From the IMG/VR virus record IMGVR_UViG_3300028920_000043, positions 32,001 through 96,000 of that record: 64,000 bases of DNA; one strand, given 5' to 3'. The notes below the pieces were generated by a model. The model had not been told where the DNA came from. It did no database searches and saw only the letters and a list, made by a program, of their open reading frames with translations. Every line of letters starts with the position of its first letter. The first letter of the stretch is position 1. The translations under genes and the position numbers were made by a program. The stretch is from a virus. Of this stretch, positions 4,761-60,627 are shown piece after piece.

Positions 4761-4827
4761 CCTAGTTCATTCTGAAACTTTCAAATTGGACTAGTTCATT
4801 AGCTTTCATGCGTGAAAGCTTTTGAAC
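4761..4827. repeat. Palindromic repeat locus 1 (core 4802-4819, plus linker and partial unit)
   Basis: CTAGTTCATT-CTGAAACTTTCAAATTGGA-CTAGTTCATTAGCTTTCATGCGTGAAAGCTTTTGAAC, matching the loci at 42.4 and 60.5 kb. Confidence 0.95.
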
Positions 4828-5054
4828 CTCCCCAGCATGCCTGTTAAGAACGTTTTCTTTTCCTGTGTCTCTTCACCAGCAACTTCAATCTCAACGATGA
4901 CTTCACCATTGATCATGGCTACCAATACTTCGTTTCCGTTCTTGTGCATAGTGACAACATTCATCTTTATTTCGTGGATACCCTTTTTGAGTATTGCACG
5001 TTCCACTGCTTGCTCAATCTTATCTTTGATATTATCCAGCTCTGCTTTTTTCAT
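4806..5054 (-). CDS. Hypothetical protein (82 aa); its last codons lie inside the palindromic repeat
   Basis: GGGAG SD upstream; overlaps the helicase stop region. C-terminal FKSFHA* is encoded by the hairpin. Confidence 0.65.
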   Translation of the reverse strand: MKKAELDNIKDKIEQAVERAILKKGIHEIKMNVVTMHKNGNEVLVAMINGEVIVEIEVAGEETQEKKTFLTGMLGRFKSFHA

Positions 5055-6780
5055 GCTTTCTCCCCGTTGAGAAAATCAAACTCCTCAACTTCATCGGACT
5101 CCACTTATGAATATCGATTCTGGTCAGCTTAAAACTATCTGAGAATAACTTATTGAATAACTGCGCTTTCTTATGAAAGATCTCAAACACTCGTTCTTCC
5201 ACAGAGTCCTTTGCAAAAAAGTTAATGACCGTAATCACTTTTGCTTTTGAATTGAATCTTCTGGCTCTTCCGATACGCTGACGCATCCGCGCCGGATTGT
5301 ATGGTATGTCAAGATTGATAACAACGTTTGCTTCCGGAAAGTTCAATCCGCGCTCTCCAGCACCTGTCATTATAAGTATGGCCGTATGGCTTTTACTAGA
5401 TCGAAATCCCTGGTACTGTAAGGACCTATCAAAATCTTTCATGCCTCCATAAACATAAAAAGGCTTATATGCCTTCAACTCTTTAATCGCTTCCTTTACA
5501 AACATCTTGCTTTCCGAAAAGATAATTATTTTCTTTCCACGCAATTCATTCTCTAAAAGTATTTTCAGTTCTTCTATCTTTGCGGACTTCTCGTTCTTGT
5601 ATTCTGGAAAGATATTCAACGAAGAACAAACCTTTCGGAGATGAATTATCGTTGCCAGCAAGTTATCAGAATTGTACTCCTCCAAAACCCCATCTTTTAT
5701 TTCTTCATATACTTTCCTTTGTTGCTTAGTTAAGTCAATTGGATAATTGCTTATGACGATTCTCGGTAGTTGTTTGTCAATCTCGTCTGTGGTTCGTTGT
5801 AGGTAGTATGGATCTATTCGCGCTTTAACCTCCTCCAGACGTTTATAATCCACCACCTTCTTATACATGTAACCTGTCTTGTGGTTCTTCTTTTCTTCAA
5901 TCACCAAATGCCTGCGCTTGAAAAAATTATGACTCCAAAATAAATTACTATCCAGCAAGCGCATAATTCCATATAGATCTTCCAGTCCATTCTCGACTGG
6001 CGTTGCCGTCAAGCATATCTTGTATCTTGCATTCTTGAACTGCTTGTAGATTTGCTTGTGTGTTGCGGTACCGGTGTTTCGTATTCTTGATGCTTCATCA
6101 CAAATCACCATCCGCTTTCTATATCGCTTCAGTATTTGCATCCAGTAATGCTTATCACGGATCAGTAATTCATAATTAACCATCACCACCGGAACTTTAC
6201 GAGATTTCAAATTCCAAAGCTTTGAGTACTTCGCTTTTCGATCTGCCGGCTCTCCCATCATTCTCAATATGCCAATCTTCTTTTTGAATTTCTTTGTCAA
6301 GCATTCTTTTATTTCTTGCGCCCATTGAAACTTCAATGGACTGGGACAAAGAACAATAACGATATCTACATTCCGTTCTTCAACAGCACGAATCATCACT
6401 CCTATACTTTGCAATGTCTTTCCCAAACCAACATCATCTGCCAACAAACCACTTTCACTCTTATATAAAAAATCGATTCCTTGCTCTTGAAAGAGATATG
6501 GTTTTTTATTCTTGGTAAAAAACTGAGAGTAGTCAAAAGCAGGCTTCTGTTTCTTTGCCGCTTGCAACTTCTTCTTTCTTTCAAGCAATTTCCAATAAGG
6601 GCTGTCATCCTTGAGTCTAAAATCATACCCATACCGCTTCTTGAGGTATGCAAGATAAGACCAATGGATGAACGATCCGGAAGCGAGATCAATAAATATC
6701 CCCATCCGAGAACGTTCGGTTCTGGAGATTCCTTTTACATGAAAGAATCCGCATTGATAATAACTGACTTTGATTTTCAT
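5032..6780 (-). CDS. SNF2-family helicase/translocase
   Basis: LLADDVGLGKT, ICDEAS, LTATPVEN, GAGERGLNF, DIPYNPARMRQRIGRARR. Confidence 0.93.
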   Translation of the reverse strand: MKIKVSYYQCGFFHVKGISRTERSRMGIFIDLASGSFIHWSYLAYLKKRYGYDFRLKDDSPYWKLLERKKKLQAAKKQKPAFDYSQFFTKNKKPYLFQEQGIDFLYKSESGLLADDVGLGKTLQSIGVMIRAVEERNVDIVIVLCPSPLKFQWAQEIKECLTKKFKKKIGILRMMGEPADRKAKYSKLWNLKSRKVPVVMVNYELLIRDKHYWMQILKRYRKRMVICDEASRIRNTGTATHKQIYKQFKNARYKICLTATPVENGLEDLYGIMRLLDSNLFWSHNFFKRRHLVIEEKKNHKTGYMYKKVVDYKRLEEVKARIDPYYLQRTTDEIDKQLPRIVISNYPIDLTKQQRKVYEEIKDGVLEEYNSDNLLATIIHLRKVCSSLNIFPEYKNEKSAKIEELKILLENELRGKKIIIFSESKMFVKEAIKELKAYKPFYVYGGMKDFDRSLQYQGFRSSKSHTAILIMTGAGERGLNFPEANVVINLDIPYNPARMRQRIGRARRFNSKAKVITVINFFAKDSVEERVFEIFHKKAQLFNKLFSDSFKLTRIDIHKWSPMKLRSLIFSTGRKHEKSRAG

Positions 6781-6814
6781 TTCAATTCCATGCAGAAAGT
6801 AATCTTACAATTTT

Positions 6815-6842
6815 ATTATATTCCTGCTGAAATCGAAAGCAA
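6815..6842 (-). promoter_or_regulatory. Putative sigma70-type promoter for the helicase/exonuclease/deazaguanine genes
   Basis: Minus strand TTGCTT-N16-TATAAT about 35 nt upstream of the helicase ATG, with an A/T tract upstream resembling an UP element. Confidence 0.55.
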
Positions 6843-6899
6843 TAGAAAAATAAAAAAAACTAGGAAGGAGGGGATGCGTTCTTTTGGGCTTGCGTTGTT

Positions 6900-6998
6900 G
6901 TATTTATATTTATATTTTATATGTATTCATTTTTTATTTCTATATTCCATATACCATACACTATTGTATATTATATTATATATTATATTATATATAGA
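6900..6998. repeat. Extremely AT-rich low-complexity tract with TATAT/ATATT iterations
   Basis: tatttatatttatattttatatgtattc...tatattatattatatattatattatatatag in the gap between structural and DNA-metabolism modules. Confidence 0.8.
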
Positions 6999-7017
6999 GC
7001 GTCCAAGAAAAAACTCG

Positions 7018-10000
7018 TTAAGATACCCTACTGAAATAATAACCACCGGCGCCTTGCGCTTCTATTATACTACTTACTTCAATCTTCCAATGAACATAAT
7101 AAGGCTGTATGGCTTTTTTGACAGTCTTTTGGTATTCTGTTACGGTAGTGCTTAAAGTTTCGCCACTCCAAGAGAAGGGAGCAAATCCTTTGGTTGCCCT
7201 AGACACTACTACCGTCACTTCCATAATCACTTTTTCAGTACTTGGATTATAATCGAAAGAGAATGAAATACTTTTTGCCATGTAACTGTTAGCAGTATGA
7301 TTATAGGTTATGGAAGTAGATATGGATTCCTTGTAATACTGCTCACTTCCTGCTTTGTATCCGTAGAAAACAGCACTGGAGTTATTAGTATCGTGCAGAC
7401 TCTCATGGAATCGAATTGTGGCAATAGCATTATTTGTGTAGTATCCATTTCCTTTATCGTTGGGCCAACCACTCGTATTCAAATGAGTAAAATAACTGCC
7501 TATGTCAATGGTTCCTAAATATGGCCTTGCATTATTAACGATCTGAGACATGGATTGAAAATCGTCTTCCAAGAATGTAAGATCAACAGTCATTTGATCT
7601 CCTATTCTTGGCGGAGAAGTAGGATAGTATTGAGTATCGATTGTGAGTATTTTTCCTGCCTCTGAAAAGGTATAAGGATACGTGCTGAGACCTTCAGGCC
7701 ACGCAGTCCCGGTCTCCGCGGATTTGACCCATTCAACATACGCTTTTCTGTTCAGCCCTGACCGACCAGGCCATCCAGGAATTATCTTATAATAGTTATA
7801 AATTGATGACCCTGATTTCTTGGTCGATATATAAAAATATACATCATGGTCGGGACTGTTTATGGCGATGTCTTTTATACCGTTTGCTGTAATAGATTCT
7901 CCGTGGATATGTGCTTCAAAATCTGGCGCACTATAACCCAATAAAAGACCTTCTATTTGGTACCCATTATTGTTGATTGCTTCCAATGGGGAAACATAAA
8001 GAACGCAAGCATCTTCGTCCACGTATGCCCCGGTTGAGGCGTTCACTCTCAGCTTTCCATATTCAATGTTATCCGTATCCAAGGTTGATAGAATAGGCAC
8101 CATAAAGACATCGCCATCGTAAGGACTCGGCCACATGGTGGTAAACAACCATACTTTTGCAAGAGAATCCTTGTTTATTCTTATCAGGTCTCGGTAATTG
8201 GAATTCGTATAATTATAAATGTTGATAAAAAGACAGTCTTTGGATTCATTGTAAATAAGAGACGACCAATCTCCTTTCCACATATTATCATTGGAAGCAT
8301 ACCCATGAACCTCAACATCCGTCTCTACGTAATCAGCATCTCCGTTGAATAGTTTTTCTTTATTTATTTTTGCAAGGCGTACTTTGTCATCCCGCCACCG
8401 TCTCATGTATAGACAATACAGATAAGTACCATCATCACACATTGACCGGATATAAGTCTGGATTGTTCCGGCACTTTCTACGGTTGGCGCATCAGTCGGT
8501 TCTTTGAATAAATATAACTTGTCTCCCGCTTGAAGAAAGCTGGCCGGGGTTCCAAAAGCACTATAAAGAAATCCTTGAACCCAGTACATGTTATAAACAG
8601 TATAAGCGGCATAATTCTCGCCATCATGCTTTACAAACTCACCATTCCGGTAAACATATAAATAGTATCCTTGACATCTCCAATCAGAATAAAGATGATA
8701 CATGTTAGGAGAATCCCACCACACCTGTCCGTCTTCAAATGCGGGACTGACATACTCATCTCCTGTAGCAAAATATATCTTTACATAACTTGGATTGAAT
8801 ACATAAGTACTTAATACCGGAACGTAATTATCCCCAAGAATAACATTGTCTCTATGTCTTTCTGTTTGGTTATAATAATCTACTTCTTGAAGCCTTACAC
8901 CAGTATCCTGTTCATCAGTATCTTCCGGCCAAGTACACCTATATATCTTTCCATCATCTGCACTTTCAGAATTGAAATCTTTACAGATTCCGACCGACAT
9001 TAAATAATTACTATTCAGCTCGGTTTCATTCGCCAGAAGTTTTGTACTTCTGAGAATCTTGGTATGCTTCAAATAATAATTCTGATCTTGTTGATCATCC
9101 GCCGGATCCCTGCGAGATAGAATCTTAGACTGTATTGGAGTTATCTGAAGATGCGCGTGGCAATCCATCTGAATGGAATCGGTTTTATAGTACATAGAGA
9201 ACGGCTTAATCTCATTGGTATACAAAGCAATAGGTTGGCGTTCAGACATCAATGGACTCTTATCCAAAACTCTCACAATATTTGCTGATGTAAGTTCCGA
9301 TGGCAATGGAACGCTTCTCAATATCTCTGCATTGGTATATCCTGCAAACCATATGGCACTAGCAGATGACCAATCGAATATTCTTTGATCTCCATAAAGA
9401 CGTACCACTACCAAATGCGTGGAAGTGAGAACGTATAATCTATCAGATCCGTTGTATCTGATTATACTCTTTGAAGTGCCAGGCAAATCAAGAATCTTAT
9501 TGAGACTGAAAGTAGCCAACTGTGATCCAGCGTAATTCCAATATCCCAAACTCTCTACGGTCCCATAGGTGTATGAAATGTCTCCCCAGTTTCCTCCCCA
9601 TATTCTCACCGCTTGTTGAGGATAATTCTGACGCTTGGTAGTAGAGCTTCCAGGAACCAAAGTATACAGTCCATCAGATTTCAGTAGAACATAACAACTC
9701 ATGCTCTGTCCGTGTTGGGCCCAATAATTAGTACCGCTATCCCCGCTGTTATTAGCAGGCGTTCCTACTACTGCATCCAATATTCCATCTTCCGGATCGA
9801 AAGAATCCCCACTGTTCTTCAAGTAGTTTACTGTGTAGGATGGAGTAAAGGTTTTGCATACATGAGATATATCAAAGCTGATTTTGGTAGGAGTATTTGC
9901 CGGCCGCTCAGAAGCCGCCGGACCCGATACATTATAGATCACTCCGCCCACCAATGCCGGTAGTTTGTTTCTGGCGGGAAACCAACTGAATACTTCTGAG

Positions 10001-11397: not shown

Positions 11398-11696
11398 GAA
11401 ATATTAGAGGCTACCAATGCCGCAGGAACCAGATTCATTATTCCAGAGGTAAGAAGATCACTGGCAACAAGGGGGTAATGAGTACTGAATGCTAATCCCA
11501 AATCTCTAGCATATAAATGATGGTGAATTGAAATGCCTCCACTATCTTCATCGGATACACCTCCACCACCTCCCGGGACCACTATTTCTTCTTCCGGCTC
11601 TTCTCGCAATGTAGATCTTCTGACACTCTCGAGACGATTAACGCGCTTCTCCAGCGCGCGTATATATGCCAGTACTTGATTGACATCTGTTCTCAT
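11394..11696 (-). CDS. Small hypothetical tail protein with N-terminal coiled coil
   Basis: IRALEKRVNRLE heptads, Gly linker; translationally coupled to both neighbours. Confidence 0.55.
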   Translation of the reverse strand: MRTDVNQVLAYIRALEKRVNRLESVRRSTLREEPEEEIVVPGGGGGVSDEDSGGISIHHHLYARDLGLAFSTHYPLVASDLLTSGIMNLVPAALVASNIS

Positions 11697-13924: not shown

Positions 13925-13929
13925 GATCT

Positions 13930-14161
13930 GGCTTCCTGGCTTTCACGCATGAAAGCTTTTGAACTAGCTCTGTCTTAAAACTTTCACGCATGAAAGCCGC
14001 ATAAAATAACTATTTTATCCGGTCATGCCTAACAAACTACCCGGTTTATTATGATTAAAAAATAAACGACCCACTCAGACCGTCTAGGCTTCTCCGTATT
14101 GCATCAATGACAAATCACTCAAGTATCGAAAAGCAGCGCGAAATACCATAGGATTTCGCAG
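13930..14161. repeat. Palindromic repeat locus 2 and long non-coding element copy A
   Basis: Cores at 13939-13956 and 13981-13997, followed by blocks colinear with 32456-32649. Confidence 0.9.
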
Positions 14162-14172
14162 GATTTCCCGCA

Positions 14173-32455: not shown

Positions 32456-32649
32456 GGCTTCCTGGCTTTCACGCATGAAAGCCGCATAAATCGATAGGTT
32501 TCTCCGCACATACCTAAGAAAACCTATACTATTTCCACATCAACCGAATATATGACGCTCTCAGACCGCGCTGAGCGCTCCGGTATACGCCATATGATAA
32601 ATCACTCATGCCCTTACATTTCAGTAAGGAATAGCGTAGGATTTCGCAG
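32456..32649. repeat. Palindromic repeat locus 3 and long non-coding element copy B
   Basis: GGCTTCCTGGCTTTCACGCATGAAAGCCGCATAAA...CTCAGACCG...AAATCACTCA...TAGGATTTCGCAG shared with 13930-14161. Confidence 0.9.
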
Positions 32650-32657
32650 TGTCCTGA

Positions 32658-38292: not shown

Positions 38293-38339
38293 AAAAGAAA
38301 AACGAAAGGAGAGCGGCTGGTGAGGGCCGCTCCCCTTCC
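38293..38339 (-). terminator. Rho-independent terminator after the major capsid gene
   Basis: Minus strand GGAGCGGC-CCTCACCA-GCCGCTCT stem followed by CCTTTCGTTTTTCTTTT. Confidence 0.8.
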
Positions 38340-42407: not shown

Positions 42408-42424
42408 GATTATTCCTCAAATTA

Positions 42425-42533
42425 TTCAAATTGAGCTAGTTCATTAGCTTTCATGCGTGAAAGCTTTTGAACTGGCTCTGTCCGAAACTTTCAAATTGGC
42501 CTAGTTCATTAGCTTTCATGCGTGAAAGCCAGT
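42425..42533. repeat. Palindromic repeat locus 4 (two units, 65-bp period)
   Basis: Cores GCTTTCATGCGTGAAAGC at 42447-42464 and 42512-42529. Confidence 0.95.
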
Positions 42534-42591
42534 AATCTGGGAATCTTTGTGTTTATATCTTAATCGAACAGTCCCAGGTTATTCTTAAATT

Positions 42592-45872: not shown

Positions 45873-45888
45873 GGTATAATCCTCTCAC

Positions 45889-47696: not shown

Positions 47697-47700
47697 ACTC

Positions 47701-48048
47701 TTAACCCCAAGGCAGAATCATTACTGAACCGTATACGTTCTTGATCCAGTAAGCAGTGTATTCATAATAAATCCCGTCGATGTAAATCAATTCAAAATTA
47801 TTCGGACTGGCCGGCGGCGTCACACCCGGTATATAAGTCTTGAACGCGCCTTCCCCGCCGAAATACGTGTTGGCAACTTCAACGCAACCCGGGGCATATG
47901 TCGCTTCCAAATAGTCGATGATGCTTTTTATTCTCTGGCCGGTCACCGGCGTCGAAATAAGCTGCCAGTCAACGTCTATCTCGACCACACCCGCCGGCGC
48001 GCCGCCGCTTTTCGGCATTGCCCCCATTACTGGCGCTATTGTTTGCAT
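47701..48048 (-). CDS. Hypothetical structural protein
   Basis: Tightly packed ORF within the operon. Confidence 0.5.
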   Translation of the reverse strand: MQTIAPVMGAMPKSGGAPAGVVEIDVDWQLISTPVTGQRIKSIIDYLEATYAPGCVEVANTYFGGEGAFKTYIPGVTPPASPNNFELIYIDGIYYEYTAYWIKNVYGSVMILPWG

Positions 48049-48057
48049 AATTCACCA

Positions 48058-50025
48058 TTATATTTTCGTGCTCAATCTTCTTACTACCAAGTCAGTTTCA
48101 GCATCAACAGGGACCGTCCCGTCATCTTTGTATAACCATTTTCTGGCAATTACAACTGAAGTGTCCTTCCTATAATAAATCTCACTCCAGTGGTTTGGGT
48201 CGGTAGTTTTATCCAAAACAATATCAATATCCCGAAGGTCCGTGGTGTATCCAAGATTCTGTGTTGTTATGTCGGTAATATTCAGCTGGGATACATATGG
48301 CTCTTTATACTGAAGTGGCAGTCTCAATCTTGTAAAATAAATTGGATTTGCACCGCCTACCTCTGATAAGCGGACAGCGATAACCTCTGTACCAAATCCC
48401 ATAAACACGCCCTCTGCCGCCCAGTTTGCATCGTTCAATGTCTTCCACGCTCCCCACGTCACACCGCCATCCTCTGAAACTCTGAATTCATATAGGGAAG
48501 TACCACTCCCAGACTCCTCAGCATAAAAACCAGTCAACCCATTTACAAAAGATATTGGTTGAGCCAGCATAATAATAGAACCGTTTGGATCTATTCTTAA
48601 CCTACCGGGACCAAAAGTGGTGATTTCAAATTCAGCATCCGTAAGAATAAAAGAATTGGTATCATCCCTGTTAGCCGGATATTGAAAATCCCATTGGAGT
48701 ATTCCTTCATATAACAATTCATCCGTAGAATAGAGCATTGGTTCATTCTGGTTGAATTGGTTATCCAAAAAGAACTTTCTATTGGATTCATTTATAAATA
48801 TTTGGTTAGTGGTCATTGTAAAAGAATTAACACGCTCAGGACTGGCTCCCAAATAAACATCTTCTGGATCGGTTAGCGTTCCACTCACCCTACAACGGAA
48901 TCCAGAAAGTGGATTGAACCACATATAGGTACTCGGTCCCCATTGAAGGACTAGCAACCTCTTGGAATTCCGACATTCAATTTCTAAATCTCCACCAGAC
49001 TCCCATACCCCTTGCATGTACGCGGCTACTGATCCATCATCCAAAAGACGGTAATAATGATTTGAATAGCCATAGGCATTAATCACAGTTATCTTTTGGT
49101 ATATGTCCATCCTCAATATAGACCTGTCCAAAGTATGCACTGCTGAATTTAACCCGCAGACACCTTTTAGAGTTGCTCGAGCTTTTGAATCATCGTCTAT
49201 GAGTTCAATCTCAACTTCCCCGTAGATATAAACATTGCCTCCAAATAATCCGTTTGATTGAGCACCTGTCCAATCCGATAAATCAACGGTAATTTTTCCA
49301 AGTCCCATTATTTCCATATTGGTAAACCCTACAGTGTTTGTCGGCAGGGTTGTCGGCTTCTGGAAAGTAATCAGAGTATCAGCGTGAAGGTGCATTGATT
49401 CACTATTCTGCATACAGTACCCGGTCCATTCTTCGACCGTTATTTGATAAAGATGTAAAGCGTAATCCCCTAACTCTGGACGATACTTATTGGTGAGTCT
49501 AGTACACATTGAGCTACCGTTATCTATTCTTGATATGTATAAATTACCAATCTCACCAACACATCTATAAAAATAAATATAGGTCCAATTCACTCCAACG
49601 CCGCTGGTTGTTATTTTTATAGGTTCTGCCCCAACTGCATAATCCCCACTGCCTCCTATTTCCACATAGGTAAACTGACGCATATAAAAAGTGGATCCAT
49701 CGGTGTGTAGTATAATCTGCGCCCCATTCCCAGCGCCGTCCTCATCCATTATTAATCTGGCGCCAAGGCTATAGTAAGCACCTCCCTGATTGCCTGTAAA
49801 GTTTCCATATAAATCTAAAACACCACCGCTACCCATATGTAGTGTAGCATCATTATTAATCGTCATTGTCTTTGCATCGTTGCCGGAAGCTTGACTGATT
49901 AATACTTCATTCCCAGTGGTCGTTGCAATTACAACATCATCCCCAGAAGTTGGAACGATCCCTCCTGTCCATGTCGTACCTTGATGATATAATCCACCAG
50001 CGGCGGTTGATATTACTGTCGGCAT
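48058..50025 (-). CDS. Beta-rich virion protein with G8-like N-terminus, paralog 1
   Basis: TWTGGIVPTSGDDVVIA; homologous over most of its length to the next gene. Confidence 0.6.
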   Translation of the reverse strand: MPTVISTAAGGLYHQGTTWTGGIVPTSGDDVVIATTTGNEVLISQASGNDAKTMTINNDATLHMGSGGVLDLYGNFTGNQGGAYYSLGARLIMDEDGAGNGAQIILHTDGSTFYMRQFTYVEIGGSGDYAVGAEPIKITTSGVGVNWTYIYFYRCVGEIGNLYISRIDNGSSMCTRLTNKYRPELGDYALHLYQITVEEWTGYCMQNSESMHLHADTLITFQKPTTLPTNTVGFTNMEIMGLGKITVDLSDWTGAQSNGLFGGNVYIYGEVEIELIDDDSKARATLKGVCGLNSAVHTLDRSILRMDIYQKITVINAYGYSNHYYRLLDDGSVAAYMQGVWESGGDLEIECRNSKRLLVLQWGPSTYMWFNPLSGFRCRVSGTLTDPEDVYLGASPERVNSFTMTTNQIFINESNRKFFLDNQFNQNEPMLYSTDELLYEGILQWDFQYPANRDDTNSFILTDAEFEITTFGPGRLRIDPNGSIIMLAQPISFVNGLTGFYAEESGSGTSLYEFRVSEDGGVTWGAWKTLNDANWAAEGVFMGFGTEVIAVRLSEVGGANPIYFTRLRLPLQYKEPYVSQLNITDITTQNLGYTTDLRDIDIVLDKTTDPNHWSEIYYRKDTSVVIARKWLYKDDGTVPVDAETDLVVRRLSTKI

Positions 50026-51915: not shown

Positions 51916-52344
51916 TTATCTTAATCTCTTCCAGATATTTCTTACATAAGTATAAACACTCAAAACGCGAGAGAGTACCAATGGAATATCACTTGCATGA
52001 GCTCCCGTCTGATTTATCACTCCGCCGAATGATCCGCCAATCTGATGATCTACGGTAGGCTCATCCCAAATCTCGTTCGGCATATCTTCTATCTTCAAAG
52101 CAGTTTCAGTAGAGCCGTAAACATAGCGCTCTCCACCCATTAAACTCGCCCCACCATCCGCTGTAAAAACATAAGTAATACTAGCATCCAAAGCAGTGGC
52201 ATTATAAAAATAATGTCCACCATCTATTTCGGTCATGGCAACGGCAGTCAAAACTTGGGTCCCATCTGTTTGCCAAGCGTCAAGCGTAGGAGATAATCCT
52301 GTCTTTGGTGATCCGTTCTCTGTAAAGAATGCCGTTATGTGCAT
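51916..52344 (-). CDS. Small virion protein
   Basis: PKTGLSP, MTEIDGGHY; C-terminal IWDEP..DH..GGSFG motif shared with the 629-aa gene. Confidence 0.55.
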   Translation of the reverse strand: MHITAFFTENGSPKTGLSPTLDAWQTDGTQVLTAVAMTEIDGGHYFYNATALDASITYVFTADGGASLMGGERYVYGSTETALKIEDMPNEIWDEPTVDHQIGGSFGGVINQTGAHASDIPLVLSRVLSVYTYVRNIWKRLR

Positions 52345-52860
52345 CTAAAATATCCTTGATAGATTCGGATCCGTTAGTATATGTTCTGCCACTGTATTAT
52401 CTGGAAATTCTCCTCCGATCTTCAATCCTACTTTATGATAACACACAGAAACAAACTCCGTACAAACATGCTTTGCCGGATCGTCATTCATTGGCGCTTT
52501 TCCCAAAGTTCCAAGAATTATTCTCCATAGATAATTTACTATATGAAAATAATCATAGCCCTTGCCAATGAATGTTTCAGCAAGAGCAATAATCTTCTCG
52601 GCTTTCTTTTTTGAAAGCTTGGAACGCATACAAGCAACACGGCGTCCAAGCCCTGTTACCTTTTTAAGCGAATACTTTTTTATTCCCATTAAATGCGCAC
52701 CAATACAAAATCCATCTCCCACATAAATTTCAGCGTGAGAGAATTTCGATCTGGTCACCAATTGAATAATAACCGACAATGGAATCCACCAAGAACCGGT
52801 TAAAAGAATATCTCCCGGTTTCAATAAATCTTCCTGTTCCTTAGTTATCATAATCCACAC
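52345..52860 (-). CDS. Permuted papain-like NlpC/P60 protein (YiiX/YebB type)
   Basis: LKPGDILL, SKFSHAEIYVG (His before Cys), GKGYDY, CTEFV. Confidence 0.82.
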   Translation of the reverse strand: MWIMITKEQEDLLKPGDILLTGSWWIPLSVIIQLVTRSKFSHAEIYVGDGFCIGAHLMGIKKYSLKKVTGLGRRVACMRSKLSKKKAEKIIALAETFIGKGYDYFHIVNYLWRIILGTLGKAPMNDDPAKHVCTEFVSVCYHKVGLKIGGEFPDNTVAEHILTDPNLSRIF

Positions 52861-52864
52861 TCCT

Positions 52865-53959: not shown

Positions 53960-53969
53960 GGTTTCAATC

Positions 53970-55709
53970 CTATACGATCTTAAAAGAATGAAGAGCAGAT
54001 TTACTGCCTGTAGTTTTTACCTGTATTTCAATAATAGCTGGATCTACCGGAAGATTGGAGATGTCTGAAGTTTCATATATCGCCTTTTCTTCTGCGGTGT
54101 AAATTATCTTTGCTATTTCTAAGCTGTTGTCCAAGTCCCACAGTCTTACTTCCGCTTGTCCGGATGTACTTGACCTGCTTCCGACTATTCTGAATGCTTG
54201 AATAGCGGCTACAGCCGTCCCATCATAAATCTGAGAAGATATAACCTGCCAACTTGATGAAGTCCATTCCAACTTATCTTCTTTGGTACTGGTATTGAAA
54301 TATGAAAAGTTAGAATAGACACCGGACAGTTTTCCCAGAATAAATTCCAGCGGCGTTTCTTCTTTGTTGAATGGAGCCACGCGCAGCACGTGTCTCAATG
54401 CCGCCTTCGGGGTATTGGAATAGGAACTCTTTGTTTCAAAAGTCAACCGATACAAAACACGAATTTCTTGGAATGGTAAATTGGTTGTGTCCAATCCAGC
54501 AAAGCTGTTAGTGAGAATCGCGCCAACCAATGAATCGTGATACCGTTCTCCAAGTATAACAAACACCGGTTCGGAAGTGCATGTTGACGCGCAAATCCAA
54601 ACTGCCGTGAATCCATCCGATGGAACATCTTCCAGAGACCACGTGCCGCCGGTATCTTTGTTGTATTGAATTCTGGACGTTCCCTCTTTCAACGGGAATG
54701 CCGTGGCGTCCGCCCTTCTCCAATCTGGACTTGAACCCGATTTGTAAAATACCGGGGCATATAGTACCGTGGATAATTTCTGTTCAAAGGGTTCTGTTGG
54801 TGTCGCATCATTAACAATAGATATTCTTATATCTTCATCAGCCAGCACTCCGTCCGTCAAGGACATCTGAGCATCTGAATCCGTTGTTCCATCTCCTCCT
54901 GTTGTATAGTTTCCTATCTCTAATCCAGATTCAAGCCACGCGCCTCTTGTCAAGTGCAAATATTTATGAGTTGCCCATGACATTACAAGTCCGTGCCGTT
55001 CCTCAGCAATAAACAAGGATTCATTTGCTGTGGCGTTCCAATAAACAAGGGCTACTTGAGCGGTCGATCCTATATCCCAAACTGTTTGGCTTGCCGTCAA
55101 TACTGCTGAACTGTTATAATAAATAAACCAAAGTCCTTCCGTATCATCTATAACAACATTTTCACTTGATTCTTTTGTATAACGTTCTCCCATTAAAAAG
55201 ACATCGAAACTGGAATCTGTTGGAGAAATTGTGAATGTTCTTGAACCATCATTAAAAGAAATTTGGGAATCCGTTCTATTCGGAAATCCCATCGGTTCAT
55301 CATCCGGATGTAATTCTCCGATAACGTCTGCTTCTATTTCAAACCAAACTGCGGATGCTGTAGTATTAACAAAACAAATAAAGAACTTTTTACTATCAGA
55401 GTTTAACCATAAGTTTCCTACTTTGAAAGTTCTGTCAATGTTTGCTGTATCCACGCCATCATTGTTTGCCGTTGGATTTGACGTTGTTACATAAGGATTA
55501 TCAGCAATAGGGCTCCATGCTTTATTATCATCGTCATACTTTCTCCATATTCTAGATTCACCGGAGGCGGGAATTTCCACAAGAATAGAACCCTTTGGTG
55601 CAGGTTCACCGCCTCCGGTAGTCGGGTCTGTGGCAGAGTAGAAAATACCAAATACATCATCTACTGCCAATCCCACGTCAACACTAAAAGCATCATTTAT
55701 GTCAGGCAT
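53970..55709 (-). CDS. Fibre-like virion protein
   Basis: DPTTGGGEPAPKGS and PTANND...F.VG..W.N......F.C motifs typical of fibre segments. Confidence 0.55.
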   Translation of the reverse strand: MPDINDAFSVDVGLAVDDVFGIFYSATDPTTGGGEPAPKGSILVEIPASGESRIWRKYDDDNKAWSPIADNPYVTTSNPTANNDGVDTANIDRTFKVGNLWLNSDSKKFFICFVNTTASAVWFEIEADVIGELHPDDEPMGFPNRTDSQISFNDGSRTFTISPTDSSFDVFLMGERYTKESSENVVIDDTEGLWFIYYNSSAVLTASQTVWDIGSTAQVALVYWNATANESLFIAEERHGLVMSWATHKYLHLTRGAWLESGLEIGNYTTGGDGTTDSDAQMSLTDGVLADEDIRISIVNDATPTEPFEQKLSTVLYAPVFYKSGSSPDWRRADATAFPLKEGTSRIQYNKDTGGTWSLEDVPSDGFTAVWICASTCTSEPVFVILGERYHDSLVGAILTNSFAGLDTTNLPFQEIRVLYRLTFETKSSYSNTPKAALRHVLRVAPFNKEETPLEFILGKLSGVYSNFSYFNTSTKEDKLEWTSSSWQVISSQIYDGTAVAAIQAFRIVGSRSSTSGQAEVRLWDLDNSLEIAKIIYTAEEKAIYETSDISNLPVDPAIIEIQVKTTGSKSALHSFKIV

Positions 55710-55748
55710 TAAAATCTTCTTTTCAAAATCTTAAACGGAGTTAAGATT

Positions 55749-57602
55749 TTATTCAGCGTTTGCTATTCTCGTACCTCTCCAGTCGATGTTCTCTGTAGCG
55801 GTAACTCGTAAACGCATATTCCCACCACTGACATCGACTGAAATAGAAAGTCCAGAAATACTGGAACCTGTTTTCAATTTGGCATACTGGGTTGAATCCA
55901 CTGACCCGGATCCATCGTGCAAGGCATGAACTTCATATGCTTCACGTTTCGTTCCGGTTGCATTGGACATTACTGTGACAAGCCACCACGCCTCACAGTA
56001 ACTTGCTGTGGCAACCTGATCCATTGTCAATCCAGAAGAAGCGTCCTGATTGTCTGCGCTGAACTTCTTTGGAGCGTTGATAGTAACATCCAACTCGGTG
56101 TCACCAATACTGCCTGCCTTGACGTAAAGCTGATTGGATCCATTCTCACCAATCGTATCATCGTCAATCTTAACGGCAACACCGTTTGAGGTCACACTAA
56201 TAACAGTAGCCAGGTTCACCCCACCAGTCGCATCAGGCTTCACCTGAAGATCATCTGATCCATTATCCTCCAGACCATTACCAGCGAAGTCTGCCGGTTC
56301 AATATCCAACAGATAAGAACTAACTCCGTTCTGCTTCAGACCGTCACCGGCAATCTCACTTGCATCAATCTCAAGATCATCAGCATTGACTTGAACACCC
56401 TTGTTTGCATCGCCAACATTGATAGTATTACCACTCTTGGTAAGACCGGCGCCGGCGATAACCTGACCCGCTCCAGAGAACTGAACCCATGTAATATTGG
56501 TTGTACCAACTGTTATGGGCTCGTCCGTAGTACACAGATAACCATTATCAGCTTGAGTAGTGCCTTCTTCCACAAACGTATAGGCTGCCGCGAACTCGTC
56601 TGCTTCGTCATTATCCGTTGCTCTTGTCAATTGCCATGGAGTACCACCATCACCAACAGTGGTCAGGACATAAATACCATTATACGGGGCATTACCCCCA
56701 GTTTCATTCTTGATCAGAACGCGGTCACCCTGTACCAGGGTAATGTCATCCTGCGAAGGGAAAGCACCGTTGGTGTTTTTAGTAAGGGTAGCGCCAACAC
56801 CTAATGTTCCATTGTTATAGGTATATGCATCTACCAATGCCGCAGTCGTTGCTGCCCTTGAGGATCCTTTACCGTGTAAGCCTTGCGCTATATTATCAAC
56901 GTAGAGTTTATTTGCCACATCGGTGTCGCTGGTTGGCGCATCGACCACCGTCATAGCACCGCCAGTCTCAACGTTGATAGCACCACCGGATTGAATCGTT
57001 ATTGTTCCGTTGGTTTGACCATCCTGCTGAACAACTGCATCCAAATCCGTTTGGTGTGGATTCGTTGTATCATCAGCGTGAGTTTTCAAAGCGCCATCAA
57101 GATCTGACGCCTTGGCCATTACCGTACTGTCAACGGAAATATAATTCGTATTTGATACATCTGAATCAGCACCAATGGCATCATCTAACGCTTCAATGTT
57201 GTCATTGACATCCTCTCCGGCAACAATCGGATTGTTTGTACGAGAATTGGCAGCGGGGTCAGCACCAATTTCGGCATCAAGTTTTCCGGCGGCAGTTTCA
57301 AGAGAATCATCATTGGCAATATGATGAGTACTTGAATAACTGGGCAAAACATTCCCGGTTGAATCCTTGCCCATGAAAGTATTCTGATAGCCATCTTCAA
57401 GACTGGCACCAGAGCTGTCAACGATCAAGGTCCAATCCGTATTCCCTGCACCTGTCTTATGGTATGTGGATCCATTAGTTCTCAGGTACAGAGATCCGAT
57501 AGGTGCTTCAACTCCTCCTCCTGATGTTGGATCATCTACACCATCAAGAACCTCAACATCATTTTCTAAAATTAGGCCTTCGCCTATTTTGAACTTACCC
57601 AT
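55749..57602 (-). CDS. Fibre / head-decoration protein
   Basis: HADDTTNPH, APTSDTDVANKLYVD, GDRVLIKNE...NGIY, TDEPITVGTTNITWVQFSGAG..AGAGLTKSGNT. Confidence 0.72.
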   Translation of the reverse strand: MGKFKIGEGLILENDVEVLDGVDDPTSGGGVEAPIGSLYLRTNGSTYHKTGAGNTDWTLIVDSSGASLEDGYQNTFMGKDSTGNVLPSYSSTHHIANDDSLETAAGKLDAEIGADPAANSRTNNPIVAGEDVNDNIEALDDAIGADSDVSNTNYISVDSTVMAKASDLDGALKTHADDTTNPHQTDLDAVVQQDGQTNGTITIQSGGAINVETGGAMTVVDAPTSDTDVANKLYVDNIAQGLHGKGSSRAATTAALVDAYTYNNGTLGVGATLTKNTNGAFPSQDDITLVQGDRVLIKNETGGNAPYNGIYVLTTVGDGGTPWQLTRATDNDEADEFAAAYTFVEEGTTQADNGYLCTTDEPITVGTTNITWVQFSGAGQVIAGAGLTKSGNTINVGDANKGVQVNADDLEIDASEIAGDGLKQNGVSSYLLDIEPADFAGNGLEDNGSDDLQVKPDATGGVNLATVISVTSNGVAVKIDDDTIGENGSNQLYVKAGSIGDTELDVTINAPKKFSADNQDASSGLTMDQVATASYCEAWWLVTVMSNATGTKREAYEVHALHDGSGSVDSTQYAKLKTGSSISGLSISVDVSGGNMRLRVTATENIDWRGTRIANAE

Positions 57603-57612
57603 TGGATGTCTC

Positions 57613-57960
57613 CTATAACATAAATCGTAAAAATTTTACTGTTATGGTTACCCCTTCATTATTGGTTATTGTCAACGTCATATCAGATCCATCACTTGTT
57701 ACCACCAGGTCATAGTCAATATCCTCTCCAGCTATAGAATATCTGGAGTAATCACAACTGGTAGAACGTGCTCTCGCCAAAACTTCTAATGATTGAGACT
57801 TCAAACCCCCATTATCAATATTGATAATCCACTTTATAGTTTTAGACAGAGATAAGGATACGGTGTCCACATCCTCCGTTCCTGAAGCGGCAATATTAAC
57901 CGTTCCACGGATTCCTGCACCGCCACCGCCGACTTGTCTAAGCTGAACATTTATTCCCAT
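57613..57960 (-). CDS. Small fibre-associated protein, similar to the C-terminal domain of the 617-aa fibre
   Basis: VDTV...KWII...SLEVLA...Y..Y...GSDMTLTIT parallels MDQV...WWLV...AYEVHA...QY...GGNMRLRVT. Confidence 0.55.
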   Translation of the reverse strand: MGINVQLRQVGGGGAGIRGTVNIAASGTEDVDTVSLSLSKTIKWIINIDNGGLKSQSLEVLARARSTSCDYSRYSIAGEDIDYDLVVTSDGSDMTLTITNNEGVTITVKFLRFML

Positions 57961-57977
57961 CTAACTCACCAATACTG

Positions 57978-58208
57978 TTATGGCTGGGCGTCAATGTATG
58001 CTTGCAAGGCGGCACCGTCTGTAATAATATTGGAAATTGCCGTCTGTTCCGATTCTGGGATCTTCGACTGAATGATCCCATAGATGTTGGCATCGTTCAA
58101 AACTGCAAGCCCGCTGAACAATGAATTCCGAATTCCGTTGATAGCGTTCTCACACTGTTCCGCAAGTAATTTCTCATCGTCTGTCAAACCACTCTTGTCA
58201 ATAGTCAT
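57978..58208 (-). CDS. Hypothetical protein
   Basis: GAGGA SD; helical 76-aa ORF. Confidence 0.55.
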   Translation of the reverse strand: MTIDKSGLTDDEKLLAEQCENAINGIRNSLFSGLAVLNDANIYGIIQSKIPESEQTAISNIITDGAALQAYIDAQP

Positions 58209-58249
58209 TTTTGTTTATCCTCGGCACTGATAGTCCTTTTTCTGTTTGT

Positions 58250-58603
58250 TTATAAATCAGCTCCGGTAAGATCCTTCAACTCTCTCCGAAGTAATTTTAC
58301 TGCTGTTGGATTGACCGCATCATCCGGAATAGTCTTGCACATCTCTTCCAACTTCAAATCGATTTCTGCTTGAGTGGGAGTTTTGCCACTCTTATTAGTT
58401 TGACGAATGACCCACTCACGAAGAGAAAACATCACTTTCTTGAGTTTCTTTTCGAGTGCTTCTTGATCCACGACTTTCTTTATGCCGGGATATTTTACAT
58501 AAAGCCAATCAACCGCTTTCCCCAAAAGCCAAAGCAAAATCATAAATGCAAATGTTATTACTGCCGGCTGAGACACCAATGATTTCAAAAACTCAACCAT
58601 CAC
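58250..58603 (-). CDS. Putative holin-like membrane protein
   Basis: Single N-terminal TM segment, basic C-terminal region, GGAGGTGG SD. Confidence 0.5.
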   Translation of the reverse strand: MMVEFLKSLVSQPAVITFAFMILLWLLGKAVDWLYVKYPGIKKVVDQEALEKKLKKVMFSLREWVIRQTNKSGKTPTQAEIDLKLEEMCKTIPDDAVNPTAVKLLRRELKDLTGADL

Positions 58604-58622
58604 TCCACCTCCATTAAAAAAA

Positions 58623-58934
58623 TTAGGCTTTCTTGCCGTTCAAACTTCGTAGAATAGATATCTGCTCATCTGCCTTAAGCAGCATCTTCAAATGCTCTTC
58701 CTTCTGAAACTTATGCGCTTCAGCATGGCGCTCATCTGCCTTCTCTATTCTTATGTGTAACTCATTAAGAGATTTTGTATGCTCTCCCAAGGACTCTGTG
58801 TTCTTTTCAAGTTGTTTGGTCATATTGGTAATAATATGCTTTACCATCCAGACGCAAAGCAAGAAAATTCCGACTGATAGCGCCATACCCAGGCCTACAT
58901 CCTTAACAGCCTGGTATATCGACAGTCCATCCAT
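58623..58934 (-). CDS. Putative holin-like (BhlA/UviB-type) membrane protein
   Basis: N-terminal TM segment followed by a coiled coil. Confidence 0.5.
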   Translation of the reverse strand: MDGLSIYQAVKDVGLGMALSVGIFLLCVWMVKHIITNMTKQLEKNTESLGEHTKSLNELHIRIEKADERHAEAHKFQKEEHLKMLLKADEQISILRSLNGKKA

Positions 58935-58950
58935 TGGTTCTCCTTTCAGA

Positions 58951-60498
58951 TTAAGCTACATCATTGAATAAACTGGAAAGTAAGTATTCCATCTCTCGTG
59001 GATCCACATCAAAATCCATGAAAAGTTTTTCACCATCCATACTAATAATATCCTTCATCTTATCCTCAGCCGTCACCGATGGCTTGACAGCTGGTTGAGA
59101 TTGAACGGGCTTAATCGGATTTCCACCTTGCGTCTGCTGTCCGGGAACGAAAGGAGCATCTCCCCACGGTACAGGTCCAAGTCCCTTCAATGCTCGAACT
59201 TCATTAATGGTATTGACCGCGTTCTGCACATAAGTCTTATCTATATTTGCTTGCGTTTCTACATCAGCGCGGTCAATATCATCAAAATCCGCTACCACAT
59301 CATAAATACCAAGACCATCCTGAACGATCTCTTTGGTATATGTATAGGATTCCAAGGCTAAAATAGGCTTGATTGCGTTTGCTTTGAATACTTCAATCTG
59401 CTGAACTGAATTGAGACGCCCAGTTCCCACATCTCTTATTCCAAGAACAATCGGTTGCATGGAATAACATGACATAACTTTCTGAAGCAACCATCTTGCA
59501 TACTCCATGAACTCCATGTCTTTATTCTTGCCCGTTAGATCGAGAAATTCTGGTTTAGTTCCCACAAATGCCATTTTATGAGAGCGCCCTTTGAATTGAG
59601 CCCTCCACCAATCGGCAAAACGTTTCAGTGCCGGCTTCTTCATTCCTCCCAAACCAACAATGCCGGACGGCATTGCATTGTTCTGAAAGAACTCGAGATT
59701 GTGGCGATCAGCAAACAGATCGGCAGCGATTGTTTGCTTCAATGATTCCAGGGGTGACAATCCATAAACTGATCCGGGTTGCGGATATTGGATCATGTAG
59801 ATCAGTTCATCCTTTTGAAACTCTGCGGCAGGTTCTCTGGGATTTTCAGGAAGGTATTGTAGATATGCCCGATTCGGAATAAGATTGCCATGCTTGTTTA
59901 TATTTTTTCGTATGTATCTTGATTCTTGATTATAGATCTCTGCCAACTTTCCGGTTGTATCTTTTACTTTCTCCATGCACCCAGAATCCGATACCAATAA
60001 ATCCAGTATCGTCTTCTTTCTGATATCCATGAAGCTTTCTTTTTCGAGATTAGGATCTTCAAAGAAGTCCATAACCGCATCCATATTTCTCTTGGTCTTA
60101 TCCGGAATGCCTGTTGCTTCAGGACGCTTGGGACGGACCCTTACATGGACTGCTGTTGCCGTCTTTACTATGAGATCAATTATTGCACGAGACCAGGAAT
60201 GGCTCCGATAGACTCCCCACATGAGATCAAGGGAGACCAAAGGTTCTCTAGGTACCCCATTTCTTCCCCCGTACCCCATTGCAGTCCGTAACTGCTGATT
60301 AATCGTTCCGCGCCGATTGCTCGAATCTCCTCGGGGCTTACCAAAATCGGGTCCGGTATCATTGTCGTCCGCCTTTATCATCTCTGCCTTTCTTTCGATA
60401 TGAACAGCAGGCACCGGCAAGACTTTTGTTTCCTCAGCTTCTGTTTCTGATCCAGGAGATGATCCCAGACGCTTGAAGAATGTAATAATTTTACTCAT
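58951..60498 (-). CDS. Portal protein (HK97-like)
   Basis: YGLSPLE, FFQNNAMPSG, DMEFME, TINEVR..GLGPVPWGD. Start moved to ATG 60498 because the track's TTG lies in the repeat. Confidence 0.95.
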   Translation of the reverse strand: MSKIITFFKRLGSSPGSETEAEETKVLPVPAVHIERKAEMIKADDNDTGPDFGKPRGDSSNRRGTINQQLRTAMGYGGRNGVPREPLVSLDLMWGVYRSHSWSRAIIDLIVKTATAVHVRVRPKRPEATGIPDKTKRNMDAVMDFFEDPNLEKESFMDIRKKTILDLLVSDSGCMEKVKDTTGKLAEIYNQESRYIRKNINKHGNLIPNRAYLQYLPENPREPAAEFQKDELIYMIQYPQPGSVYGLSPLESLKQTIAADLFADRHNLEFFQNNAMPSGIVGLGGMKKPALKRFADWWRAQFKGRSHKMAFVGTKPEFLDLTGKNKDMEFMEYARWLLQKVMSCYSMQPIVLGIRDVGTGRLNSVQQIEVFKANAIKPILALESYTYTKEIVQDGLGIYDVVADFDDIDRADVETQANIDKTYVQNAVNTINEVRALKGLGPVPWGDAPFVPGQQTQGGNPIKPVQSQPAVKPSVTAEDKMKDIISMDGEKLFMDFDVDPREMEYLLSSLFNDVA

Positions 60499-60514
60499 TG
60501 AAGATCCCCAAATA

Positions 60515-60627
60515 TTCAAGCAGAGCTAGTTCAAAAGCTTTCACGCATGAAAGCTAACCATCCAGTCCAATTTGAAACTTTCAAGCAGAGCTAGTTCAAA
60601 AGCTTTCACGCATGAAAGCTAATGAAC
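60515..60627. repeat. Palindromic repeat locus 5 (two units, 65-bp period, opposite orientation to loci 1 and 4)
   Basis: TTCAAGCAGAGCTAGTTCAAAAGCTTTCACGCATGAAAGCTAA occurs twice; cores at 60537-60554 and 60602-60619. Confidence 0.95.

Follow-up and report, generated by a model that had tools for sequence, protein, structure and literature searches.

Dispersed intergenic palindromes in a tailed phage as candidate docking sites for its own ParB-family protein

One palindrome recurs at gene boundaries throughout this phage DNA, which raises the question of what reads it. The window (the whole stretch of 64,000 nucleotides analysed here) belongs to an IMG/VR phage record of 111 kb that is 80% complete. 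It bears eight copies of the 18-bp core GCTTTCA-YGCR-TGAAAGC, against 0.02 expected from shuffles, at the five loci reported by the first-pass annotation (Table 1). Allowing up to one mismatch gave nine matches in the window, where shuffles predict 0.02; one of them, at 52601, is an unrelated hairpin and was set aside from the core family. The whole record, which that annotation had proposed to scan, contains 15 near-identical cores at 11 loci, all intergenic.

Most cores are embedded in a nested palindrome of 40-70 bp. The full unit reads CTAGTTCA-WW-AGCTTTCA-YGCR-TGAAAGCT-WW-TGAACTAG, and a linker palindrome, TTGAAA-G-TTTCAA, is present, both as previously described. The outer arm TGAACTAG occurs 10 times in the genome, nine of them adjoining a core. 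Tandem cores have the 65-bp period claimed earlier at Loci 4 and 5, and are 41 bp apart at Locus 2. Both orientations occur, as had been noted: on the coding strand the centre reads CGCA in 5 of the 15 copies and TGCG in 10. The asymmetric centre (C..A) and the AA/AA bulges are constant in all 15 copies of this genome. These features would not be selected by a symmetric dimer, and their constancy suggests copy-and-paste spread.

The sites are placed after a stop codon and before the ribosome-binding site of the gene that follows. All five window loci lie 14-50 nt 5' of a minus-strand start, the genes behind them encoding a 5'-3' exonuclease, a 742-aa protein, a Zn-ribbon protein, a 494-aa protein and the portal. 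The earlier placement just upstream of gene starts is therefore correct for these loci, but not for two copies at the left end of the genome, which lie inside a non-coding region of about 900 nt with no gene start adjoining. That the loci fill most of the longer gaps was overstated, since the motif is borne by 5 of the 16 window gaps of at least 40 nt and by 4 of the 9 of at least 100 nt. The core of Locus 1 contains the stop codon of an 82-aa ORF, and the exonuclease gene that follows is succeeded by a 7-deazaguanine cluster. At Locus 2, 14 nt separate the end of the proximal core from the start of the 742-aa gene, whose previous naming as tail hub finds no Pfam or PHROG match. Locus 3 is followed by the Zn-ribbon gene (91 aa) and a sugar-epimerase gene, and Locus 4, whose units are joined by a TGAAAGTTTC-type linker, by the 494-aa gene, the head protease and the major head protein. 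Locus 5, with the TTGAAA-G-TTTCAA linker, lies between the large terminase and portal genes. Two colinear non-coding leaders end in cores of Loci 2 and 3. Copy 1 holds two terminator-like hairpins, and an Rfam search of both leaders matched no family.

Table 1. Positions of the palindrome loci, the associated leaders and the ParB gene. Window coordinates are given unless stated otherwise.
Feature	Position	Strand	Description
Locus 1	4761..4829	.	single core 4802-4819, both outer arms
Locus 1 linker palindrome	4773-4785		
Locus 1 additional outer arm	4762-4769		
Locus 2	13925..13998	.	cores 13939-13956 and 13980-13997 (the latter with 1 mismatch, first base A), 41 bp apart
Non-coding leader, copy 1	13998..14172	-	conserved, ~190 nt, ends in Locus 2 distal core
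Locus 3	32465..32482	.	lone core without outer arms
Non-coding leader, copy 2	32483..32657	-	conserved, ~190 nt, ends in Locus 3 core
Locus 4	42408..42535	.	two full units 65 bp apart, cores 42447-42464 and 42512-42529
Locus 5	60520..60630	.	two full units 65 bp apart, cores 60537-60554 and 60602-60619
ParB-family protein, 401 aa	genome 12052-13257	-	outside window, ~19 kb before its first base (plus-strand map)

The record contains exactly one ParB-type gene, the product of which belongs to the ParB family by sequence and fold. It matches HTH_ParB in Pfam (4e-11) and, weakly and under the cut-off, ParB_N (23.6 bits). Searches with phmmer against solved structures returned ParB, Spo0J and Noc (7bnk, 4umk, 6t1f, 6sdk, 7ol9), and the alignments cover the GERR and N..R.DL..E box. 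In the AF2 model, block means of pLDDT mostly exceed 85 across residues 140-320, and the top Foldseek matches of this model are ParB, Noc, Spo0J and KorB (KorB structures 8qa8 and 8qa9). Within the GERRxR and ENxxRxDLxxxE boxes, G194, R196, R197 and N231 are invariant among 40 homologues and R234, L237 and E241 nearly so, while the third arginine of GERRxR is a threonine in the phage protein. The N-terminal 130 residues form a lysine-rich, then acidic, disordered tail without the ParA-binding LG(R/K)GL motif found in chromosomal ParB. A PF13614 profile search for a ParA partner gave no match in the 80%-complete record, and these two findings speak against a ParABS partition system. The gene sits in a recombination module, with RecA, RuvC and a UvsY-like protein as neighbours, and palindrome sites flank its operon (genome positions 13805 and 13764 upstream, 11482 downstream).

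The half-site of the palindrome, GCTTTCAC, has 6 of 8 bases in common with the consensus parS, TGTTTCAC (parS and NBS sequences from PMC7383237). Such a match has a chance probability of about 0.004 per register and is suggestive only. The half-sites are split by two extra base pairs, giving 8-2-8 versus 8-0-8 for parS, a spacing that no chromosomal parS or NBS site has (PMC7383237).

A motif check in a relative had also been proposed, and the comparison made here rests on a single genome, G003. It shares a syntenic replication module (33-65% amino acid identity), and its ParB is 47% identical. G003 bears 29 copies of a different palindrome, AGTTTAA-YGYR-TTAAACT, with identical 8-2-8 geometry; both arms are altered symmetrically with respect to this phage, and the half-site, AGTTTAAC, again agrees with parS at 6 of 8 bases. 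Almost all copies are placed in the interval from a stop codon to the following ribosome-binding site. Their arms are invariant and the central two to four bases vary (CGCG, CGCA, CCTA, CGTG, TGTG), as expected if a dimer contacts the arms. The two phage ParBs differ (E/T/D versus K/I/N) at the recognition-helix positions aligned to residues 173, 179 and 184, which set specificity in Caulobacter ParB (PMC7383237). Site and ParB change together in this one relative, and with a single genome compared, common descent could equally account for palindrome and ParB occurring together. At about 30 loci from more remote relatives, related by polymerase or RecA, neither this ParB nor a palindrome family was found. 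Between the two phages the positions of the sites have turned over, except next to the ParB operon; there, one G003 copy lies in the orthologous gap, flanked by the UvsY-like gene and the 437- and 321-aa homologues. Since this position is kept though the palindrome sequence differs, the family is an old one that has evolved in concert.

These features point to the palindromes as double-stranded DNA docking sites, comparable to parS loading sites, for the phage's own orphan ParB, a reading to which we assign a probability of about 0.5. On this reading, a dimer of the protein would recognise both 8-bp half-sites, GCTTTCAC and its near mirror, over the 2-bp spacer. Extra, weaker half-sites may be supplied by the outer TGAACTAG arms and by the TTGAAA linkers, and the tandem loci would then become nucleation platforms. 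Bound or CTP-clamped ParB could gate transcription into the next module, like KorB at OB or the L5 repressor at stoperators; we infer such gating because the sites lie only at gene boundaries, in places just past terminator-like hairpins. Genome compaction is a possible second effect. Among the functions suggested by the first-pass annotation, the operator or activator option is therefore favoured, with a candidate reader encoded outside the window. ParB-fold clamps regulate genes from dispersed sites on other mobile elements, including KorB (PMC11790492), BisD (PMC12409273) and VirB (PMC10770331).

Among known systems, the nearest counterparts are KorB with its OB operators and the mycobacteriophage stoperators. 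On the IncP-1 plasmid RK2, as proposed for this phage, a ParB-fold HTH protein reads a short palindrome scattered over the mobile genome, at or near operon heads; KorB clamps on CTP, slides and represses promoters (PMC11790492, PMC13768133). However, KorB has a ParA partner, IncC, and the clamp-locking KorA and TrbA, none of which was found in this phage. OB is also a 13-bp site without the 8-2-8 split, whereas the phage sites are nested 40-70-bp arrays placed between stop codon and ribosome-binding site, and its element is a plasmid rather than a lytic-looking tailed phage. The chromosomal ParB-parS and Noc-NBS systems involve the same protein family, and the phage half-site shares TTTCAC with parS, but the phage has no ParA, and its sites have two extra central base pairs and are dispersed genome-wide at gene boundaries, whereas chromosomal sites cluster near the origin (PMC7383237). 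The SAS/ESAS of Cluster K mycobacteriophages are likewise a conserved repeat just 5' of many gene starts, although SAS is an asymmetric 13-bp motif that includes the ribosome-binding site, has one orientation and has no proposed ParB-family reader (PMC3203893).

The stoperators of Cluster A mycobacteriophages (L5 gp71) also occur in dozens of copies, for the most part within short gaps between genes; a single phage protein binds them and blocks elongating RNA polymerase, and between related phages the motif varies in step with that protein (PMC9283540, PMC6550527). They are, however, asymmetric 13-bp sites in one orientation for the monomeric immunity repressor of a temperate phage (PMC9283540, PMC6550527), whereas the phage sites are palindromic, occur in both orientations and have ParB as candidate reader. 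No lysogeny gene (repressor or integrase) was found in the 80%-complete record. Identity with stoperators was rejected on these grounds, and the likeness is functional only. In the linear plasmid-prophage N15, separated sopC inverted repeats within phage gene regions are bound by SopB, so that a phage genome again carries dispersed inverted repeats for its own ParB-family protein. N15 nevertheless has SopA, a ParA, and its four sites, versus 15-29 here, are used for plasmid partition in lysogeny.

The same boundary palindromes could instead act in mRNA, as intercistronic or 5'-untranslated hairpins that are processed (the full units by host RNase III), stabilise 5' ends or bind a sequence-specific translational regulator that recognises RNA. 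We consider this unlikely, though several observations suit it. Except for the two left-end copies, which are away from any gene start, the sites lie in transcribed intergenic space 2-50 nt 5' of a ribosome-binding site. In G003 all nine asymmetric copies read CGCA on the coding strand and none TGCG, and in this genome two copies have a G-U-compatible change. This placement, strand bias and variant fit an RNA-level role equally well. At two loci the 5' arm can alternatively pair with a downstream AGGAAG Shine-Dalgarno-like sequence. In the early mRNAs of T7 and SP82, RNase III processes intercistronic stem-loops that have an internal loop, measure about 20 bp and lie 5' of ribosome-binding sites. 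The full units fold in a manner like the T7 R-sites (8 bp, a 2x2 loop, then 8-11 bp; -13 to -23 kcal/mol), so the RNase III stems proposed earlier are possible for these 19-bp units. As a rule for every copy, a stem of about 20 bp of double-stranded RNA was rejected, only full units satisfying it: core-only stems (7-8 bp, -7.9 kcal/mol) and the G003 hairpins (9 A-U-rich pairs, -4.1 kcal/mol) are too short, and the copy at 11482 has lost its stem (-1.5) without compensation. T7 and SP82 sites vary in sequence and keep one orientation, whereas the phage palindromes are fixed in sequence and occur in both, which in this genome would give different loops (CGCA or UGCG) and bulges (AA/AA or UU/UU). 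Moreover, stems of identical sequence recur 15 or 29 times without compensatory variation, which argues for recognition of sequence rather than structure. Rfam gave no match, and the 80%-complete record yielded no phage RNase III gene.

The sites may also be operators of another DNA-binding protein, of phage or host, with ParB serving unrelated ends such as replication or recombination with RecA, RuvC and the UvsY-like protein. The location of ParB among recombination genes suits this, and the nested TGAA half-sites with 10-12-bp phasing would fit any dimer or tetramer. An HTH regulator could be concealed among the early and middle proteins, the majority of which match nothing in Pfam or PHROG. 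This reading nonetheless seems quite improbable: in each of the two phages the half-sites resemble parS in particular and the ParB operon is flanked by sites, and no sequence-specific DNA binder other than ParB was recognised.

It is very improbable that the palindromes are selfish or recombinogenic repeats with no regulatory role, either REP- or MITE-like copy-and-paste elements or recombination sequences at module junctions. The copies are near-identical even in their non-palindromic centre and bulges, the whole unit occurs inverted, and the repeated cassette of G003 often takes in the ribosome-binding site (families D5, D7 and D8). The turnover of site positions outside the ParB operon fits the recombination sites suggested earlier, but no tyrosine recombinase or integrase was found in the 80%-complete record. 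The search of the record for a RAYT/Y1 transposase (PF01797) was likewise negative. The REP/HUH option is further weakened by the orthologous position that bears a different palindrome in the relative. There are no target-site duplications and no terminal GTAG, the flanks reading CTAG. Nor is this a circulating element, as IMG/VR gave only three single exact matches and no matching flanks occur in 185,579 species genomes.

That the palindromes are themselves promoters or terminators, for host RNA polymerase or a phage factor, is scarcely credible, although they head functional modules and a promoter must be nearby at Locus 2, where the sites come after terminator-like hairpins. In the site-bearing window regions, a sigma-70-type promoter scan (-35 and -10 hexamers spaced by 16-18 bp) gave no coding-strand site within cores and an intrinsic-terminator scan did not report the cores. 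The core stem (-7.9 kcal/mol) is followed by at most four U, in one orientation only, and both orientations occur. In G003 the whole gap from stop codon to ribosome-binding site is taken up by the palindrome, so that a promoter would not fit. The 80%-complete record yielded no sigma factor gene.

Mimicry of a host CRISPR repeat (Racr), raised by the first-pass annotation, gained no support from an exact-core scan of the 185,579 species genomes: the 89 stretches obtained are nearly all single, none has the phage unit flanks, and none of the flanks listed resembles a CRISPR array. The only enrichment in that scan was an unrelated repeat in Thermohalobaculum.

Docking of the orphan ParB leads to a broader proposal, which we put forward tentatively: a partner-less ParB clamp, loaded at parS-derived 8-2-8 boundary palindromes, may be a genome-wide transcription gate in a lytic-looking tailed phage, site and protein co-evolving. 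A variant, in which the clamp would guide 7-deazaguanine modification by the phage DpdA along the DNA, is less likely. In the literature searched, control or organisation of gene modules by ParB is described for plasmids and not for such phages. If docking and gating are true, they would amount to a KorB-like or stoperator-like circuit in a phage.

A pattern search allowing at most one mismatch located the 18-bp palindrome GCTTTCA-YGCR-TGAAAGC (the core) at the five window loci listed in the table, and a ninth match, at 52601, proved to be an unrelated hairpin. The number of core matches expected in shuffled window sequence was 0.02. The whole record of 111,210 bp, which is 80% complete according to CheckV, carries 15 cores at 11 loci, and about 120 of its 151 called ORFs are on the minus strand. 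When read on this coding strand, the five loci displayed the nested unit, the linker palindrome (TTGAAA-G-TTTCAA) and the tandem periods of 65 bp and 41 bp reported in the first-pass annotation. Once the 15 copies were oriented to a CGCA centre, their flanks could be aligned, and the unit consists, in order, of an 11-bp outer arm (GAGCTAGTTCA), AAA, the core, TAA, the mirrored outer arm and ATTTGAAA, with TGAA present in all three nested layers. In 13 of the 15 copies, the AA/AA bulges accompany the asymmetric centre, indicating that whole units were inverted. Both orientations do indeed occur, the coding strand showing CGCA in five copies and TGCG in ten. Nine of the ten genomic occurrences of TGAACTAG adjoin a core, and the half-site TGAAAGC is not enriched outside the units (about 20 copies versus 14.5 expected).

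All window loci are situated 14-50 nt 5' of a start codon, in agreement with the earlier claim that they lie just upstream of gene starts, and core 4802 contains the stop codon of an 82-aa ORF. The idea that they fill most of the longer intergenic gaps was overstated, as the motif is present in only 5 of the 16 window gaps of at least 40 nt. Although two of the three reading frames through the core are open, no copy occurs within a gene body, and the function of the core therefore seems to be tied to gene boundaries and not to mere tiling of the genome. Some operon boundaries lack a site, since a strong intrinsic-terminator-like hairpin (14 pairs, including 9 G-C, and a U tract) is found 3' of the major head protein gene without an adjoining palindrome. 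ARAGORN also called a putative tRNA-Ser (GCT), which may be due to chance, within a 655-aa ORF (48058-50025).

Positions of the palindrome loci and associated features in the window and in the whole record (genome)
Feature	Position	Strand	Description
Locus 1	window 4802		downstream: 5'-3' exonuclease gene, then 7-deazaguanine cluster
Locus 2	window 13939, 13980		downstream: 742-aa protein gene
Locus 3	window 32465		downstream: Zn-ribbon protein gene, then sugar epimerase gene
Locus 4	window 42447, 42512		downstream: 494-aa protein gene, then head protease and major head protein genes
Locus 5	window 60537, 60602		downstream: portal gene, directly after large terminase gene
~190-nt non-coding element	window 13998-14172 and 32483-32657	minus	two colinear diverged copies
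Terminator-like hairpin	window 38304-38339	minus	3' of major head protein gene
Putative tRNA-Ser (GCT)	window 48897-48989	minus	within 655-aa ORF
167-aa gene	genome 11512-12015	minus	downstream of ParB gene; 49% identical in G003
ParB gene	genome 12052-13257	minus	401 aa; Pfam HTH_ParB 4e-11, weak ParB_N
Left-end non-coding region	genome about 109,950-110,900		~900 nt, at the record's transcriptional start

The 47 kb flanking the window were scanned for a candidate reader of the cores. The ParB gene, which gives the sole ParB_N match in the record, belongs to a three-gene unit with two cores upstream (13805 and 13764) and one directly downstream (11482). Its product can be aligned with ParB, Spo0J and Noc chains of solved structure over the GERR box, the N..R.DL..E box and the helix-turn-helix. 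An AlphaFold model built with 40 homologues is confident at residues 140-320, and its best structural matches are Myxococcus ParB, Noc, Thermus Spo0J, Caulobacter ParB and KorB. Residues 1-130 form a disordered tail, in which a histone-H1-like lysine/alanine-rich stretch is followed by a long acidic run; this tail may bind DNA non-specifically or promote condensates. The 167-aa neighbour resembles UvsY-like recombination mediators in a protein atlas, which is a lead only, and does not look like a KorA-like partner. The proximity of RecA, RuvC and UvsY-like genes places ParB within a recombination module. Family searches of the 80% complete record for ParA, sigma-70 region 2 and RNase III gave no match.

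The published sites read TGTTTCAC-GTGAAACA for consensus parS and TATTTCCC-GGGAAATA for Noc (PMC7383237). The phage half-site GCTTTCAC retains TTTCAC, i.e. 6 of the 8 bases of the parS half-site, whereas its two halves are split by a central GC, resulting in an 8-2-8 geometry in place of the 8-0-8 of parS. A 6/8 match has a chance probability of about 0.004 per register, and the likeness is therefore suggestive but not decisive of half-sites derived from parS with altered spacing.

An exhaustive HMMER search yielded 5,849 ParB homologues, only two of which are close (47% and 40% identity). The 40% homologue has a similar N-terminal tail, and the other a shorter one. The 47% homologue is encoded by G003, a 76-kb IMG/VR contig (IMGVR_UViG_3300013103_000005) whose replication module is syntenic with that of this phage (33-65% amino-acid identity). 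It carries 29 copies of AGTTTAA-YGYR-TTAAACT, also of 8-2-8 geometry, in which both arms are altered symmetrically and the half-site AGTTTAAC again matches parS at 6 of 8 bases. Nearly all copies are located 0-3 nt past a stop codon or include that codon, at a distance of 8-24 nt from the following start; often a TAA in the palindrome arm is what terminates the upstream gene. No variation occurs in the arms, whereas the centres are CGCG (17), CGCA (9), CCTA (1), CGTG (1) and TGTG (1). All nine asymmetric copies have CGCA on the coding strand (TGCG, none), which is a strand bias. One copy occupies the orthologous gap, bounded by the UvsY-like gene and the homologues of 437/321 aa, and another heads the ParB unit, with one extra small ORF between. 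The remaining positions are unshared, and thus the sites turn over. The recognition helices of the two ParBs differ at positions aligning with the Caulobacter specificity residues 173, 179 and 184 (PMC7383237).

Relatives were sought through ParB, portal, polymerase and RecA, and G003 was the only usable one. At about 30 loci from polymerase or RecA relatives that are more distant, this ParB is absent, as is any palindrome family, and these loci are consequently uninformative on co-variation. Against cultured phages, megablast of 6 kb found no match and tblastn of ParB found only 36% partial matches in cyanophages. The exact core gave three single matches in IMG/VR, and in both of the records scanned further the core remains single when 3 mismatches are allowed. 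The proposal that the motif mimics a CRISPR repeat (Racr) found no support when 185,579 species genomes were scanned for the exact core, as nearly all matches were single and none had the phage flanks. About 25 of the 89 genome-collection matches correspond to the 18-mer with a CGCG centre that is highly repeated in Thermohalobaculum genomes. It often adjoins an ATCAA/TTGAT motif, its flanks are unlike the phage unit, and it apparently represents an unrelated family of repeats or binding sites in an alphaproteobacterium.

Taken together, we propose, with a probability of roughly one half, that ParB dimers nucleate on the 8-2-8 cores and gate the entry of transcription into the module that follows. 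Nucleation would be assisted by the half-sites of the outer arms and linkers, gating could proceed with or without CTP-driven clamping, and the lysine-rich tail might, as a second effect, cause compaction. The locus 2 sites follow two terminator-like hairpins, so that a promoter would lie close to or over them, which is the position of an operator or roadblock.

Action of the cores at the RNA level is considerably less probable. The strict placement adjoining ribosome-binding sites, the RNase III-like dimensions of the full units, the uniform strand orientation of the asymmetric G003 copies (9/9) and one G-U-compatible variant are consistent with it. However, this genome contains cores in both orientations, the left-end copies are situated away from genes, and stem sequences are identical across copies with zero compensatory variation, the variant copies being too few for informative counting. 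The hairpins are also weak (core, -7.9 kcal/mol; G003, -4.1; uncompensated 11482 copy, -1.5). These features favour a DNA-level site. Recognition of such a site by a DNA-binding protein other than ParB is a slightly weaker candidate still. It is improbable that the cores are selfish or recombinogenic repeats; searches of the 80% complete record for the RAYT/HUH (Y1 transposase) enzyme and the tyrosine recombinase envisaged in the first-pass annotation found neither family. Promoters or terminators are the least credible option, the cores being missed by both a sigma-70-type promoter scan and a terminator scan.

Two further regions are associated with cores. The ~190-nt elements lie ahead of the cores of loci 2 and 3, in which they terminate; their conserved blocks include CTGCGAAATCCTA, TGAGTGATTT, CGGTCTGAG and TTTATGCGG, and the locus 2 copy contains two terminator-like hairpins. 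Rfam searches of both elements (E <= 1) and of the whole window (gathering threshold) returned no family. At both loci, the 5' arm of the core can alternatively pair with a downstream Shine-Dalgarno-like AGGAAG, a possible expression platform. At the left end, two cores 156 bp apart, with no gene adjoining, are embedded in a longer diverged repeat. A second palindrome, ATACCSGGTAT, has three genome copies, two inside this region (110,460 and 110,751) and one just outside (109,802). The region could represent an origin, an early control region or a centromere-like cluster.

Phages commonly encode orphan ParB proteins, the roles of which are largely uncharacterised; a survey that recorded numerous orphans of the ParB fold among phages and other mobile elements did not assign DNA sites to them (PMC12704722). 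Established precedents for ParB-type regulation are KorB and its OB sites (PMC11790492, PMC13768133), BisD (PMC12409273) and VirB (PMC10770331), and phage stoperators offer a precedent for a motif that tracks its repressor between relatives (PMC9283540, PMC6550527). A likeness to the ParB-dependent thymine dioxygenase systems was set aside because the ParBs there have no DNA-binding domain (PMC13229309). Our literature search found no description of an orphan ParB with dispersed palindromes in a tailed phage. The present case is distinguished by half-sites that are apparently derived from parS and separated by a 2-bp spacer, by the nesting of the arrays, and by strict placement at gene boundaries.

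A single ParB gene together with a single short site, whose half-sites are parS-like but differently spaced, makes a testable pair, for which G003 represents a natural specificity swap. Should the cores act in RNA instead, they would constitute an unusually uniform family of intercistronic signals. If ParB binding is true, it would reveal how recognition by ParB can accommodate 2 bp inserted between the half-sites, and would supply two orthogonal ParB/site pairs useful in DNA labelling. It would also extend the CTP-clamp regulation of plasmids and integrative elements (KorB, BisD, VirB) to phage gene control.
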